Sequence record: MG589383
Strand: one strand, 5' to 3'
Length of the DNA: 64,000 bases
From: Shigella phage phi25-307
In this document: piece after piece, positions 40,029 through 59,708 of the stretch
How the letters are laid out: each line of letters opens with the position of its first letter
How positions within the stretch are numbered: the first letter of the stretch is position 1
Notes under the pieces: model-generated
Seen by the model: only the letters and a program-made list of their open reading frames with translations
Database searches by the model: none
Told to the model about the DNA's origin: nothing
Program-made: the position numbers and the translations under genes

Positions 40029-41354
40029 TCAAAGTGCCTCCAAGTCTTTAGTGTACTCTGTCACAACATCAGTAGACTTCCAATACTCATTTTCTTCTTT
40101 CTTAGCTTTAGCTTCTTCTGCCAGTTTACGTGCTTCGTCGGAAGTGATATGGAAGATGTTAAGGCCTACCAGTTTATCGACATGTTCTTTATACATTTCG
40201 ATTTGTGCTAGCTCTTCAGTCAAAGCTTTACGAGTCTTGCCCTGAATCACAATTTCGCCACTGATAACTTTTTTGATGAAGTGTGCCTTAGCAAAAGCCA
40301 GTTTAAATGCTTTTTCAGATTCAAGGATTTTGTTGTCAATACGTTTCTGAACGTAAGTCTTACGGACTTCAACAAAATCTTTGATTAAGTCCACTACGTT
40401 ATCATAGACGGCTAATTTACCCTTTTCATTAATCACTGTGATGTTTTGTGAACGACGTTCGATGAGACTAAAATCTTTCATGATTTTTTCATGACGTAGC
40501 TCTTCATCATCAGGAAGCGAGTACTCTTTACGGAACTTCACCTTAAACCCAAAGCCGTGTTCACCACAATCATCTTCCCATGAGATTAGACCTTTGTCTT
40601 CCAATGGGTCAAGAACCTTACTCACATACGTTTCACGGTCGAATTTATATGGGATTTCAGTTATCTGCATTTGAGTGCGAGATGTGAACTTATATGTTCC
40701 GTGAATCTCATAACGCCCATCAACTTCGTGTACTTCACCACGGAATTCCGGGAATTCAACTTTTGGCTTAGTGACATTTTTACCTTGAAGAGCTTGTAAT
40801 ACGGCCTTTTTTACCGATTTAAAACTATGAGGCAGAATATTTGTTGCGTAACCGGTTGCAATACCAGAGACACCATTCAAAAGAACTGTCGGAATAATAG
40901 GAAGATAGAATTTTGGTGGAATGTGTTCTTTATCTTCATGGGCTGGAGCATATTCAGTATCTTTATATACGTTATAGAAATTTTTACTTACACGAGCAAA
41001 AATATAACGAGATGCTGCAGCTTTTTGGACTGTTCGAGAACCAAAGTTGCCTTGGCCATCTAACAGTGGATAGTTGTTGTTCCATGTGTTAGCCATCAAT
41101 GCACCTGCATCTTGTGCAGAAGATTCACCATGGTGATAACCTAAATCTGCAACACCGCCTGCAATTGACGCAAGTTTATGAAATTTTTCTTTATTACCAC
41201 GAGCCAAATCTAACGCACGATGAACCACAAAACGTTGAACCGGCTTAAATCCATCAATCATGTTTGGGATTGCACGGTTTTCAACGGTGTACATCGCGTA
41301 TGCTAAGGCTTCGTTATCAATAATACTTTTTAGATTACGAGAATTCAATTGCAT
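40029..41354 (-). CDS. 52: DNA topoisomerase II medium subunit gp52, 441 aa
   Basis: Size close to T4 gp52 (442 aa); GyrA-like N-terminal region with near-identity to remembered T4 gp52 (IDNEALAYAMYTVENRAIPNMIDGFKPVQRF). Confidence 0.95.
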   Translation of the reverse strand: MQLNSRNLKSIIDNEALAYAMYTVENRAIPNMIDGFKPVQRFVVHRALDLARGNKEKFHKLASIAGGVADLGYHHGESSAQDAGALMANTWNNNYPLLDGQGNFGSRTVQKAAASRYIFARVSKNFYNVYKDTEYAPAHEDKEHIPPKFYLPIIPTVLLNGVSGIATGYATNILPHSFKSVKKAVLQALQGKNVTKPKVEFPEFRGEVHEVDGRYEIHGTYKFTSRTQMQITEIPYKFDRETYVSKVLDPLEDKGLISWEDDCGEHGFGFKVKFRKEYSLPDDEELRHEKIMKDFSLIERRSQNITVINEKGKLAVYDNVVDLIKDFVEVRKTYVQKRIDNKILESEKAFKLAFAKAHFIKKVISGEIVIQGKTRKALTEELAQIEMYKEHVDKLVGLNIFHITSDEARKLAEEAKAKKEENEYWKSTDVVTEYTKDLEAL

Positions 41355-41358
41355 ATTT

Positions 41359-41499
41359 TCACCATATTAATGAACGAATAGCCATTATAACATCTGAAAT
41401 GAAAAGCACTACTTGGATTAGCCCAAACATCACACCATAGTACAGAACCGTAAGCAACAACAAGAGCCCGAAGGCTCCTGCTAAGATTTTCTTAATCAT
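41359..41499 (-). CDS. Small hydrophobic protein, 46 aa (52.1 position; uncertain)
   Basis: Hand translation MIKKILAGAFGLLLLLTVLYYGVMFGLIQVVLFISDVIMAIRSLIW; a UUCG hairpin (41463-41478) lies inside it, so it may be a terminator region rather than a gene. Confidence 0.3.
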   Translation of the reverse strand: MIKKILAGAFGLLLLLTVLYYGVMFGLIQVVLFISDVIMAIRSLIW

Positions 41500-41644
41500 T
41501 ACTCGCCTTTAATACGTTAAAAAGAGCTAAGACCGCTAAGGTACCTTGTGACACAGCCTGTTGAAATACTGTTGTTTCGCCTGTAACTAAAGTGTTAACG
41601 AATAAAAACGACCAACACAGCAATGCAATAATCCATGCTACCAT
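41492..41644 (-). CDS. ac: Ac-like small membrane protein, 50 aa
   Basis: Hand translation MVAWIIALLCWSFLFVNTLVTGETTVFQQAVSQGTLAVLALFNVLKASND; SD GAGGT; size and position (between ndd and 52) match T4 ac (51 aa). Confidence 0.5.
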   Translation of the reverse strand: MVAWIIALLCWSFLFVNTLVTGETTVFQQAVSQGTLAVLALFNVLKASND

Positions 41645-41670
41645 TTTAATTACCTCAAAAATAAATTAAA

Positions 41671-41689
41671 GGCCTAGCTTAATAGGCCT
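41671..41689 (-). terminator. Stem-loop after ndd (AGGCCUA...UAGGCCU) followed by AU-rich run
   Basis: 7-bp stem; minus strand continues TTAATTTATTTTT. Confidence 0.45.
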
Positions 41690-41696
41690 GTATAAA

Positions 41697-42143
41697 TTAG
41701 TAACTCTGCAGAATGAATTTGAAGTTATCAGCCAGAAGACGGTTCATTTCAGTGAGTGTTTGATATTCTGATGTATGGTTGCGAGTGAATGCCAGAGCCA
41801 ATTGACCTTTACCGTAACCAGTAGTCAGGGGTTTCATGTTCTTAGCTGCAACAAAGATTACATCATATTCAATATTGTTAGTGCCCATGGTACGGGCTAG
41901 TTGCGAACGGCCTTGACGAATGTGAGAAAGAATTGCATCTAACCCTTGTTTAGAACGTTGACGTCCTACAAAGAATCGTGCTGCTACTTGACGCCAATCA
42001 GATGAACCTTTAACAAAGAAGTAAAAACCTTCACGAGAACGAAACTCTTTAGAAACTTCAGAACCGTATTCGCCATTACGAACTACTGCAACAACTTCAC
42101 CGCCAACTGCCAGAAGGTCTTTACGAGTTAAATATTTGGACAT
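41697..42143 (-). CDS. ndd: Nucleoid disruption protein Ndd, 148 aa
   Basis: Close match to remembered T4 Ndd ([63 protein letters not shown]). Confidence 0.9.
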
Positions 42144-42188
42144 GCTAATTTCCTCAATTGATTAATGATTTTATTATCCAATGAGAGC

Positions 42189-42218
42189 ATTATACTCTGC
42201 TCTCAAGAGTTTGTACAA
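42189..42218 (-). promoter_or_regulatory. Early promoter for ndd (TTGTACA, 18 nt, TATAAT) with GAGAGCA/TGCTCTC inverted repeat
   Basis: Minus strand TTGTACAAACTCTTGAGAGCAGAGTATAATGCTCTCA. Confidence 0.55.
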
Positions 42219-42220
42219 TT

Positions 42221-42421
42221 TTATTCGGCTATATCAGAACGTTCAAAAAGCTCTTCAACAGTTAAACATTCGGTGTCGTCCTCAATAAAGAATCGAGTCC
42301 AACACGTTGGGGCGATACAGTTATGAGTTTGTCCGGCGATAGAAGCTACACGAATAAGCTGCTGACCATTATTCAGAACAAATTTTTCACCAATTTCAAC
42401 ATCTTTAAAAAGCTTAGCCAT
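42221..42421 (-). CDS. Hypothetical protein, 66 aa
   Basis: ORF downstream of the cassette at 42443-42479. Confidence 0.5.
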   Translation of the reverse strand: MAKLFKDVEIGEKFVLNNGQQLIRVASIAGQTHNCIAPTCWTRFFIEDDTECLTVEELFERSDIAE

Positions 42422-42442
42422 TTTGTGTTCCTCATGTTTCAG

Positions 42443-42479
42443 TAGGACTACTATACCATAATCCTACCTTGATGTAAAC
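42443..42479 (-). promoter_or_regulatory. PeSL-like early promoter cassette (family B)
   Basis: Minus strand GTTTACATCAAGGTAGGATTATGGTATAGTAGTCCTACTG. Confidence 0.55.
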
Positions 42480-42481
42480 AA

Positions 42482-42592
42482 TTAAATTACATTAAAATAT
42501 GTTAAAGCCAACCATGTTCCAGTGAACGAACATACGATGTAAAAACCCGTATCACAAATTGTTCTTAGTACAATAAGAAGCGCATTTTTCAT
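42482..42592 (-). CDS. Hydrophobic micro-protein, 36 aa (below ORF-track cut-off)
   Basis: Hand translation MKNALLIVLRTICDTGFYIVCSFTGTWLALTYFNVI; ATG overlaps the stop of the preceding micro-ORF (ATGA). Confidence 0.3.
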   Translation of the reverse strand: MKNALLIVLRTICDTGFYIVCSFTGTWLALTYFNVI

Positions 42593-42675
42593 AAGTACCT
42601 CAATGCAATTGAAAATATTATACAAATCATAGGGATACTAAGCAACCATATTCCGATCCACATTTTAGAGCTCAT
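42589..42675 (-). CDS. Hydrophobic micro-protein, 28 aa (below ORF-track cut-off)
   Basis: Hand translation MSSKMWIGIWLLSIPMICIIFSIALRYL; ATG overlaps the stop of ORF 42672..42935 (ATGA). Confidence 0.3.
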   Translation of the reverse strand: MSSKMWIGIWLLSIPMICIIFSIALRYL

Positions 42676-42935
42676 ATCTCAACTTCCGCGAGTTCCATAT
42701 ATCCTTTGTTGATAACCTCTTTAAGGTCTTTAGAAAGAATAACACTAAAATGGTCGTTCATATGTCCATTAACTAAACGAGTTATTTCTGCTTCAGATGA
42801 CATATAAGGCACGTCTGAGTCCCAATGAGATAGACTCAAATGGGTATAAATCATCCCTTCGTCATCTGCGGTGTTGTACATTGAAACAAATTCGCCTGTT
42901 ACTTTATGTTTTGCGTAGAAAAATTTAAATTTCAT
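42672..42935 (-). CDS. Hypothetical protein, 87 aa
   Basis: ORF downstream of the cassette at 42964-43001. Confidence 0.55.
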   Translation of the reverse strand: MKFKFFYAKHKVTGEFVSMYNTADDEGMIYTHLSLSHWDSDVPYMSSEAEITRLVNGHMNDHFSVILSKDLKEVINKGYMELAEVEI

Positions 42936-42963
42936 GATGTTATCCTCTTTTAGATAGGACTAC

Positions 42964-43001
42964 TATATCATAGTCCTACTTAGTTGTAAACACTTTTATG
43001 A
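42964..43001 (-). promoter_or_regulatory. PeSL-like early promoter cassette (family B) with perfect 8-bp inverted repeat
   Basis: Minus strand GTTTACAACTAAGTAGGACTATGATATAGTAGTCCTATC. Confidence 0.55.
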
Positions 43002-43003
43002 AA

Positions 43004-43480
43004 TTAAAGATGAAGATACCACCCGTTGTAGTTGCTCTTGCGGACGATTTTCTTTAGGTCTTCATGGTCTCCCACGAACTTTATAGAATAAGAGAAGACG
43101 TCAGGTGAGGTTTCTTTGACATCTAATATAATAATGCAATCTGCGACTCGATGGTTCAAGAAGGGCCCTATATTGATTCCATTACCACCCGGATAATCAC
43201 CACTGTATCCTGTGGTAACCGAAATCCATTTAGAATCTATCTGGTGTGTCTTGACTTCTACACGAATTCCACAATACTTGGGATGGGCTAACACGTCCCA
43301 TGCATACGTGTACGGGTCTTCTACGTCTTCAATACCTTTATTAACATATCCGTCTAGCCAATTTGCTACTACATACTCTGCAAAGACCGCAACCTTACAA
43401 CGTCGAACTACGTCTTCTTTTATTTGACCTGGATCTTGTTTCAACGAGTACCGAGCAGTGTCAGCAATCTTCACCTTCAT
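43004..43480 (-). CDS. Putative PD-(D/E)xK-like nuclease, 158 aa (possibly DenB / endonuclease IV by position; start uncertain)
   Basis: D...EVK and LDVKE motifs; position between rIIB and ndd; the track ORF extends to 43624 (206 aa) and an internal Met would give 185 aa. Identity is not established. Confidence 0.35.
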   Translation of the reverse strand: MKVKIADTARYSLKQDPGQIKEDVVRRCKVAVFAEYVVANWLDGYVNKGIEDVEDPYTYAWDVLAHPKYCGIRVEVKTHQIDSKWISVTTGYSGDYPGGNGINIGPFLNHRVADCIIILDVKETSPDVFSYSIKFVGDHEDLKKIVRKSNYNGWYLHL

Positions 43481-43496
43481 TTCACTAGTCAAAAAC

Positions 43497-43784
43497 TCAT
43501 TCGACAGGATAAATGTCGGAAGATTCTTCAGTCTCAACAGTCCCAAGTTCGTCTTTACCATAGATACCTCTGATGTGTAGTTCGCCAAAATAAATGCGGT
43601 CACCTTCTTCAAGATATTCTGCATCTACAGGCGGAATTTCAATAACAACTTCGTCACATTCTAACCAGCCGTAGTGTGCATCGCCAGGATGTTTTACCAA
43701 TTTAGCACAATAAACTGATTTACACTTATGATGACCACGAAGATTAGCAATTTTGGATTCTGATACGTCAAATGGATGAATCAT
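43497..43784 (-). CDS. Hypothetical Cys/His-containing protein, 95 aa
   Basis: Start trimmed to ATG 43784, which follows the rIIB terminator and AGGGG; contains HHKCKSVYC. Confidence 0.5.
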   Translation of the reverse strand: MIHPFDVSESKIANLRGHHKCKSVYCAKLVKHPGDAHYGWLECDEVVIEIPPVDAEYLEEGDRIYFGELHIRGIYGKDELGTVETEESSDIYPVE

Positions 43785-59189: not shown

Positions 59190-59708
59190 TCAGTAACCAT
59201 TATCCTGGCGTTCAAAGTTGTGTTGGTTTTTCAGGTAATACAGTTTGAAGATTTCTTCAGCAGAAAGTCCTAGACCTTGGAACATATTTAGAACGAAATG
59301 TAGGATATCAATCATCTCGAATTTAATTTCAAGCTGGTCTTCAGGAGACAGTTCATCGATACGACGATTTCGATATTCAGCATGTTGTGCCTTCCACGGC
59401 TTCCATACAGAGCTAGCGGCTTTTTCACCATTGCTCATACCACCAAGTGAAGTCAGCAGTTCACGGAATTCATCATCAATATAATCTTTCTGATTACGCA
59501 GCCAATCAACAACATCACCAGCAGTAGCCAATTCATCAGGATGTTTGTTATGTTCAGGCTTGTCATTTGCCAGACGAACCTGTAAAGATTTCTGCATATC
59601 AAGCATTACCTGCAGAGGGTCTTTATCTTCGTGAATCAGGGCATTAAAATAAGCTTCTTCTGCTTTATCAACACCAGAAATAAGTTGTGAACATTCGTTA
59701 AAGTGCGC
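59190..59708 (-). CDS. 56: dCTP pyrophosphatase (dCTPase/dUTPase) gp56, 172 aa
   Basis: Start trimmed to MAHFNEC; close match to remembered T4 gp56 (DPLQVMLDMQ, FRELLTSLG, SPEDQLEIKFE..D..HFVLNMF.GLG, EEIFKLYYLKN); position between soc and 61. Confidence 0.75.
   Translation of the reverse strand, partial: AHFNECSQLISGVDKAEEAYFNALIHEDKDPLQVMLDMQKSLQVRLANDKPEHNKHPDELATAGDVVDWLRNQKDYIDDEFRELLTSLGGMSNGEKAASSVWKPWKAQHAEYRNRRIDELSPEDQLEIKFEMIDILHFVLNMFQGLGLSAEEIFKLYYLKNQHNFERQDNGY

Follow-up and report, generated by a model that had tools for sequence, protein, structure and literature searches.

Two micro-ORFs between denB and ndd of Shigella phage phi25-307: a T4 Ndd.6 ortholog and a probable gene restricted to Mosigvirus

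In the genome of Shigella phage phi25-307 (sequence record MG589383), the ORF track leaves a 190-nt gap empty, and the locus raises the question of whether the two much shorter ORFs found there, ORF A and ORF B, are genes and, if so, what their products might do. We analyzed them within a 64,000-nt stretch of the genome (hereafter, the window). A first-pass annotation of the window, made from the sequence alone, had given coordinates and peptides for both ORFs that proved exact; the strand, which it left unstated, is the minus strand, and the plus strand of the interval contains no ORF of ≥20 aa. Its description of the interval as empty of ORFs of ≥60 aa was borne out, as was its report that start codons overlap the preceding stop as ATGA, which applies at both junctions. 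The implication that the feature had gone unrecognized was wrong: these are T4 ndd.6-type genes that are already present in RefSeq records of relatives and in PHROGs, and the two micro-ORFs are known and annotated in related phages.

In the RefSeq annotation of HX01, gp199 (GenBank protein id: YP_010247046), named “outer membrane protein,” is ORF A, and gp200 (GenBank protein id: YP_010247047), a hypothetical protein, is ORF B. In phage 55, the pair (Phage55_121/122) is annotated with ribosome-binding sites, and both products are listed as “putative transmembrane protein.” The HX01 and phage 55 pairs are the same two genes as in the window, with each peptide differing by one or two residues in the aligned region, and ORF B is annotated in most records. 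The gap is empty in the RefSeq records of RB69, phiC120 and SF and in the GenBank record of NBG1, and it seemed unoccupied because these records omit both ORFs. As T4-type “ndd.x” micro-genes have long been catalogued, the discovery value is small, and the use of the analysis lies in curation and context.

Layout of the locus

Window positions 41300-43700 have 97-98% DNA identity to many Mosigvirus genomes, and by sequence the window is classified here as Mosigvirus, an RB69/HX01-like T-even phage. The flanking ORFs, all on the minus strand, are those for the gp52 topoisomerase subunit, 52.1, ac, ndd, ndd.1, a DenB-like endonuclease and rIIB. Two ATGA overlaps chain three cistrons (Table 1), one between the ORF87 stop and the ORF A start and the other between the ORF A stop and the ORF B start.

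Table 1. Features of the locus, in window coordinates.
Feature	Coordinates	Strand	Remarks
ORF87, 87 codons	42935..42672	minus	First cistron of module; PHROG 2390
ORF A, 28 aa, MSSKMWIGIWLLSIPMICIIFSIALRYL	42675..42589	minus	Second cistron; T4 Ndd.6 ortholog; PHROG 8851
ORF B, 36 aa, MKNALLIVLRTICDTGFYIVCSFTGTWLALTYFNVI	42592..42482	minus	Third cistron; PHROG 18561; apparently Mosigvirus-restricted
GAGGT Shine-Dalgarno of ORF B	42597..42601	minus	Within ORF A codons for L-R-Y, 5 nt before ATG
Upstream early-promoter cassette, copy 2 of 54-nt direct repeat	42955..43008	minus	Predicted to drive ORF87, ORF A and ORF B
Downstream early-promoter cassette, copy 1 of repeat	42443..42496	minus	Predicted to drive ndd.1 and ndd; 3' boundary of module

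The first-pass annotation had placed the interval between two promoter cassettes. Both cassettes are real, but they bracket ORF87 too and not merely the 190-nt gap. The two copies of the direct repeat are 81% identical and 512 bp apart, and each contains a TTTACA-N17-TATAGT promoter on the minus strand, matching TTTACW-N17-TAYWAT, the consensus of T4-type early promoters/PeSLs (PMC4122927). The upstream cassette has its -35 TTTACA from 42990 and an extended -10 TATAGT to 42962, with an inverted repeat (TAGGACTA...TAGTCCTA) overlapping the -10; in the downstream cassette, the -35 TTTACA runs from 42478 and the -10 TATAGT to 42450. This layout resembles PeSL-bounded modules (Arbiol 2010; Comeau 2014), in which small ORFans lie between repeated early-promoter cassettes in a hyperplastic region, and, as in PeSL-type regions, the denB-ndd gene content varies by genus. 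It differs from them in that the inverted repeat of the window overlaps the -10 and there is no separate upstream terminator hairpin.

By itself, the ATGA-chained pattern is not beyond chance: Markov-simulated sequence is expected to contain approximately 8.5 such pairs of small ORFs in every 64 kb, compared with 14 in the window. We regard the finding as real because of evolutionary conservation, not because of the ATGA pattern. Other ATGA-chained pairs (25-60 codons in each ORF) on the minus strand start near 59431, 58509, 57721, 49431 and 4825; some may be real micro-gene pairs and others internal ATGs of longer genes. A codon-usage log-odds score trained on the window’s long ORFs could separate neither micro-ORF from random small ORFs, and it was discarded either way because the composition of membrane peptides differs from that of soluble proteins.

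The first cistron, ORF87, is preceded by the Shine-Dalgarno sequence AGAGGA, and its ratio of synonymous to nonsynonymous changes is 25:12 (P = 8.5e-8). Homologs occur before ndd.6 in Tequatrovirus and Dhakavirus. ORF87 had no match in Pfam or NCBIfam. AlphaFold2 returned a confident model (pLDDT 91), yet this model matched no solved structure and, in BFVD, only uncharacterised proteins of T4-like phages, and the structure was dropped as a clue to function.

In T4 (NC_000866, ~166997-167020, minus strand), an unannotated mini-ORF of eight codons, which encodes MKIAEIEL and has a GGAG Shine-Dalgarno sequence, lies just upstream of ndd.6, and its stop overlaps the ndd.6 ATG as ATGA. The encoded peptide corresponds exactly to the C terminus of the 87-aa homolog of ORF87 that other Tequatroviruses retain (ESh18, G8 and metagenome contigs; the homologs end in ...NSNEMKIAEIEL and a stop); thus, T4 lost ORF87 by deletion and kept a coupling-competent remnant.

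Elsewhere in the neighborhood, the 52-nt gap between ac and ndd (window 41645-41696) is without stp, where T4 has the 26-aa Stp, and contains only a terminator-like hairpin (41689..41670, minus strand). The DenB-like ORF (window 43004-43624) is 206 aa in its longest version, and the denB start differs among the records of relatives, which annotate 471, 477, 558 or 621 nt. At window 42128-42218 (minus strand), NHEP11 and NicPhage have a CDS of 29 aa overlapping both the start of ndd and the early promoter at 42217..42189. Just a 20-aa ATG ORF is open at these window positions, and the 29-aa CDS is probably a gene-caller artefact.

ORF A and the Ndd.6 family

The BLASTP alignment of ORF A with T4 Ndd.6 (T4p275; GenBank protein id: NP_049886) covers both peptides over their full length, with 14 of 28 residues identical (50%; E = 2e-9). 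The score was not reached in a shuffle test (P = 0 of 3000), and hmmscan matched ORF A to PHROG 8851 over residues 1-28 of 28 (E = 1.9e-10). ORF A also has the synteny of Ndd.6: it occupies the denB-ndd position on the same strand, and its start overlaps the stop of an ORF87-family gene (in T4, of the remnant). We identify ORF A, by sequence and synteny, as an ortholog of T4 Ndd.6. The two share a length of 28 aa, the invariant motif, the denB-ndd position and strand and the early-promoter context, and in both an ATGA overlap and a GAGGT Shine-Dalgarno sequence lead onto a downstream micro-ORF. They differ in that T4 keeps ORF87 as an 8-codon remnant, whereas ORF87 is intact in the window and in Tequatroviruses other than T4. 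A comparison of ORF A with Ac gave P = 0.006, which is not significant after 16 tests.

The family consists of peptides of 27-29 aa with one hydrophobic helix. It is conserved in at least four Tevenvirinae genera, and TBLASTN analysis identified it in ~750 T-even records. Homologs were read from the sequences of Tequatrovirus (T4, ESh18 and four metagenome contigs), Dhakavirus (VR5, KIT01, MX01 and B-01) and Gelderlandvirus (UTK0003). Every one of these sits between denB and ndd, with the strand also the same in T4, ESh18, VR5, KIT01, MX01 and UTK0003, and in UTK0003 the Ndd.6 gene is alone there. The VR5 and UTK0003 proteins have 79% aa identity, and their genes are 86% identical at codon positions 1 and 2 and 38% identical at position 3, a pattern that reads as a textbook signature of purifying selection. 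All 23 Mosigvirus sequences examined have an intact ORF A, in which I20V, A24V and L11F are the only changes, and its variable-site density (0.069) is the lowest in the region. Conservation of the frames in relatives was the check that the first-pass annotation had proposed; it was found for ORF A in Mosigvirus and across the four genera, and also for ORF B (see below).

Ten residues (M1, S2, S3, W6, W10, I14, P15, I17, C18 and F21) are invariant among seven Ndd.6 sequences from four genera. Those in the hydrophobic stretch of ORF A are grouped on one face of the helix (resultant 0.59, P = 0.023), which suggests a specific helix-helix interface. The first-pass annotation called both peptides strongly hydrophobic. 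This holds to an extreme degree for ORF A, with a GRAVY of 1.53 and a best 19-residue Kyte-Doolittle window of 2.49, values that rank in the top 1-3% (top 1% for the best window) of the 204 small ORFs in the window; however, ORF B is only moderately hydrophobic, with a GRAVY of 1.14 and a rank in the top 10-13%. The Shine-Dalgarno sequence of ORF A is a weak GAG alone, and its translation therefore probably depends on coupling. Early expression of ORF A is predicted from the consensus early-promoter match upstream.

Outer-membrane proteins are beta-barrels or lipoproteins with signal peptides. Because ORF A would form a 28-residue helix and has neither a lipobox nor a signal peptide that could be cleaved, the “outer membrane protein” label in HX01 is almost certainly wrong, a misleading legacy guess at localisation. 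ORF A deserves the label of Ndd.6 homolog; the gene itself is absent from the RB69 reference and from several other RefSeq annotations of Mosigvirus, Dhakavirus and Gelderlandvirus. Ndd.6 is the sole denB-ndd micro-protein kept across four genera and is therefore the region’s most sensible candidate for studies of what small early membrane proteins of phages do.

Unannotated Ndd.6 homologs lie at 1501-1590 in VR5, KIT01 and UTK0003 and at 401-490 in MX01 (coordinates of the loci extracted). The start codon is TTG in VR5, KIT01 and MX01, with a TTGA overlap with the upstream stop and a GAGGTG Shine-Dalgarno sequence; B-01, the fourth Dhakavirus read, has ATG.

ORF B and the position of T4 ndd.5

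We consider ORF B a probable gene, although the coding evidence is suggestive and not conclusive. Using hmmscan, ORF B matched PHROG 18561 over residues 1-36 of 36 (E = 2e-28). TBLASTN analysis identified it in 151 phage records, all Mosigvirus-like, with full-length alignments at ≥88.9% identity in ~149 of the 151. When ORF B was searched exhaustively with HMMER against 1.84 billion cluster representatives, only its own cluster was returned (a 36-aa representative with 94% identity). Judging from these searches, ORF B is restricted to Mosigvirus.

Orphan status of this kind is what would be seen if ORF A were the sole gene and ORF B an open frame without function, lying in the spacer that separates ndd.6 from the next early promoter, an alternative that we regard as unlikely. 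The genomes compared are just 2-5% diverged and the sequence is AT-rich, so the frame could be open by default. Among the 22 sequences that extend over ORF B, the frame is unbroken in 20. Its indels comprise an in-frame 3-nt deletion in four genomes and frameshifts in KAW3E185 and F2. The frameshifts favor a non-functional frame; however, both genomes were picked as outliers, and the sole indel in the unbiased sample is the in-frame one. Moreover, both frameshifts occur at homopolymer runs, as is typical of sequencing error, and the well-conserved ndd.6 of phage G8 contains a comparable frameshift; the ORF B frameshifts are therefore within deposit noise. The F2 record (MN864145) contains apparent annotation errors: the ndd homolog is named “naphthalene 1,2-dioxygenase,” and the record is classed as Tequatrovirus, yet the locus is 97% identical to Mosigvirus.

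Substitutions likewise bear on both readings of ORF B. In frame, synonymous and nonsynonymous changes number 9:10, compared with 3:16 and 4:15 for the alternative frames, and none of the 19 substitution events gained a stop. The synonymous excess is not significant for ORF B alone (P = 0.07), whereas it is for ORF A and ORF B combined (P = 0.014). On the other side, the variable-site density of ORF B is high at 0.16, near the 0.24 of the adjoining intergenic stretch; substitution density is higher in ORF B than in either of the other two ORFs, and radical changes occur at G16 (to V or W). Scans of IMG/VR and metagenomes added only three and six further loci, respectively, so the within-genus dN/dS is underpowered.

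The translation signals argue for a gene. The GAGGT Shine-Dalgarno sequence of ORF B is strong and lies 5 nt from the ATG, at optimal spacing, and the junction is built as in T4 ndd.6/ndd.5. An upstream TTG is an alternative start that would give a product of 47 aa; relatives annotate the ATG. Against a gene, the last five codons of ORF B are within the downstream promoter-cassette repeat, small ORFs chained by ATGA arise by chance at the rate given above, and the hydrophobicity of the peptide is unremarkable for the genome. Its best hydrophobic window (1.68) is borderline for a transmembrane helix and includes R10 and D14.

A comparison with T4 places ORF B in an occupied slot. T4-type phages have the order ORF87, ATGA, ndd.6, GAGGT-N5-ATGA, ndd.5 and the next early promoter, and the design in the window is identical. 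Where the window has ORF B, T4-type phages thus have a different peptide gene of essentially equal size, which also argues against a mere spacer. T4 Ndd.5 (T4p274; PHROG 5011) resembles ORF B in following ndd.6 directly, in its ATGA coupling, its MK start and its hydrophobicity and in ending before the next early promoter; it differs in size (32 aa versus 36 aa) and in PHROG, and the two have no detectable homology. BLASTP at E ≤ 100 gave no alignment between them, a shuffle test of the global alignment gave P = 0.14, and hmmscan with ORF B returned phrog_18561 alone. At the DNA level, similarity between ORF B and ndd.5 is limited to the common junction and the 3' end (interior, P = 0.76). On the BLASTP, shuffle and DNA tests, we rejected ORF B as a recognizable homolog of any of the T4 ndd.x, 52.1 and Ac peptides. 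Based on position and sequence, ORF B may be either a positional analog of Ndd.5 or an ortholog that has diverged beyond recognition.

Proposed role of the micro-proteins

We think it likely that ORF A and ORF B encode coupled, immediate-early, single-pass inner-membrane accessory micro-proteins within a three-gene module of the hyperplastic denB-ndd region. The first-pass annotation had proposed coupled hydrophobic micro-proteins, possibly of the membrane, and the kept frames, the GAGGT Shine-Dalgarno sequence and the ATGA/ATGA design of T4-type phages support this reading, with the membrane as the probable location. We infer membrane insertion, topology, coupling and host target from these features. 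Host sigma-70 RNA polymerase would transcribe the module from TTTACA-N17-TATAGT within the first minutes of infection. Ribosomes ending ORF87 would re-initiate at the overlapping ATGA on ORF A, and a second re-initiation at the ORF B ATGA would be aided by the GAGGT Shine-Dalgarno sequence, so that the three products would be made together. Each micro-protein would then enter the inner membrane as a single helix, and the ORF A face formed by W6, W10, I14, P15, I17, C18 and F21 could contact itself, its module partners or a host membrane protein. The micro-proteins would be dispensable accessories of the “monkey-wrench” kind that modulate the physiology of the host envelope, and not structural or lysis proteins.

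Bacterial small inner-membrane regulators, such as those of the AcrZ, MgtS and SgrT class, are <50 aa and form a single helix. The micro-proteins are like them in size and in having one helix, of which one face is conserved, as if to bind a larger protein of the membrane; they differ in that there is no sequence relationship, and the analogy is one of mechanism only.

T4 provides the closest experimental context. Its annotation contains six or seven micro-genes (ndd.2 to ndd.6) between ndd.1 and denB. Hydrophobic peptides of 3-4 kDa are nearly invisible to shotgun proteomics. In a dual-omics study of T4, the ndd.2-ndd.6 transcripts were classified as “early,” and the Ndd.2-Ndd.6 proteins were not detected by mass spectrometry (Class_P = NA; PMC9697503 Table S2). 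Kutter et al. 2018 describe the ndd.1-ndd.6 products as of unknown function and inside the sa-delta-9 deletion, which extends from 52.1 to denB (PMC6071114). The deletion abolishes the post-infection stimulation of phospholipid synthesis, especially that of phosphatidylglycerol, and the gene responsible is unmapped (PMC6071114). Our literature search found no ribosome profiling of T4 and no functional work on ndd.5 or ndd.6.

The first-pass annotation had also suggested modulators of lysis or exclusion, or small toxins. A role for the peptides in lysis timing (as holin/antiholin-like modulators), in superinfection exclusion or as small membrane toxins is, in our judgment, quite unlikely. Both peptides are predicted to form single hydrophobic helices, and the membrane-related accessory genes rIIB, ac and 52.1 are neighbors; furthermore, many T4 immediate-early small genes are lethal to the host when cloned (PMC6071114). 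However, neither peptide had any match in Pfam or NCBIfam, and no holin/antiholin, spanin, Imm/Sp or toxin family was matched in Pfam, NCBIfam or PHROGs. The early sigma-70-type promoter and the location in the host-takeover region, away from the lysis genes, argue against lysis. CRISPRi-ART knock-downs of T4 ndd.5 and ndd.6 were scored “Not Fit,” that is, without an effect on fitness or plaques (PMC11879866), and phage with the whole-region deletion sa-delta-9 is viable, with a 50% burst (PMC6071114). With regard to a toxin, the interval contains no convincing antisense-RNA or antitoxin partner: the Rfam search returned no antitoxin RNA, and the sole promoter-like match on the plus strand (9/12) is within chance expectation.

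That the interval works as RNA or DNA and not as protein (a structured leader, a small RNA or a recombination-cassette spacer) is scarcely credible, even though it is flanked by repeated promoter cassettes of the type proposed for modular shuffling, as no Rfam family was matched (best E = 0.72, irrelevant), RNA folding at the two ATGA junctions was not significant relative to shuffles (z = 0.23 and 1.33), and ORF A is conserved as amino acids with third positions saturated across genera and is therefore unlike an RNA or DNA element.

The membrane micro-protein reading can be extended to the whole module, in a form that we offer as speculation and consider very unlikely. ORF87, Ndd.6 and a fast-turnover third peptide (Ndd.5 in Tequatrovirus, ORF B in Mosigvirus) would make up an ancestral early membrane complex of Tevenvirinae, co-translated stoichiometrically. 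Ndd.6 would tether the soluble domain of ORF87 to the inner membrane, and the third peptide would be exchanged as the host or defence background requires. If this were true, a membrane phenotype of the 52-rIIB region whose determinant is unmapped, for example the phosphatidylglycerol stimulation lost in sa-delta-9, could be due to the module.

Two variants concern ORF87 and its neighbors. In a contig of Logan assembly SRR25011005 (801-1148; protein P0005), one +1 G insertion (gagattGgaactATGagt) joins an ORF87 homolog in frame to Ndd.6, giving a fusion product of 115 aa. It was met once and is either a real variant or an assembly error; as a single insertion in one assembly, it was set aside as too anecdotal to serve as Rosetta-stone evidence for ORF87 and Ndd.6. 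In the Mosigvirus metagenome contig OBCQ01000004.1, codon 38 of ORF87 has become an amber codon (TGG to TAG, W38 to stop), and ORF A and ORF B are intact.
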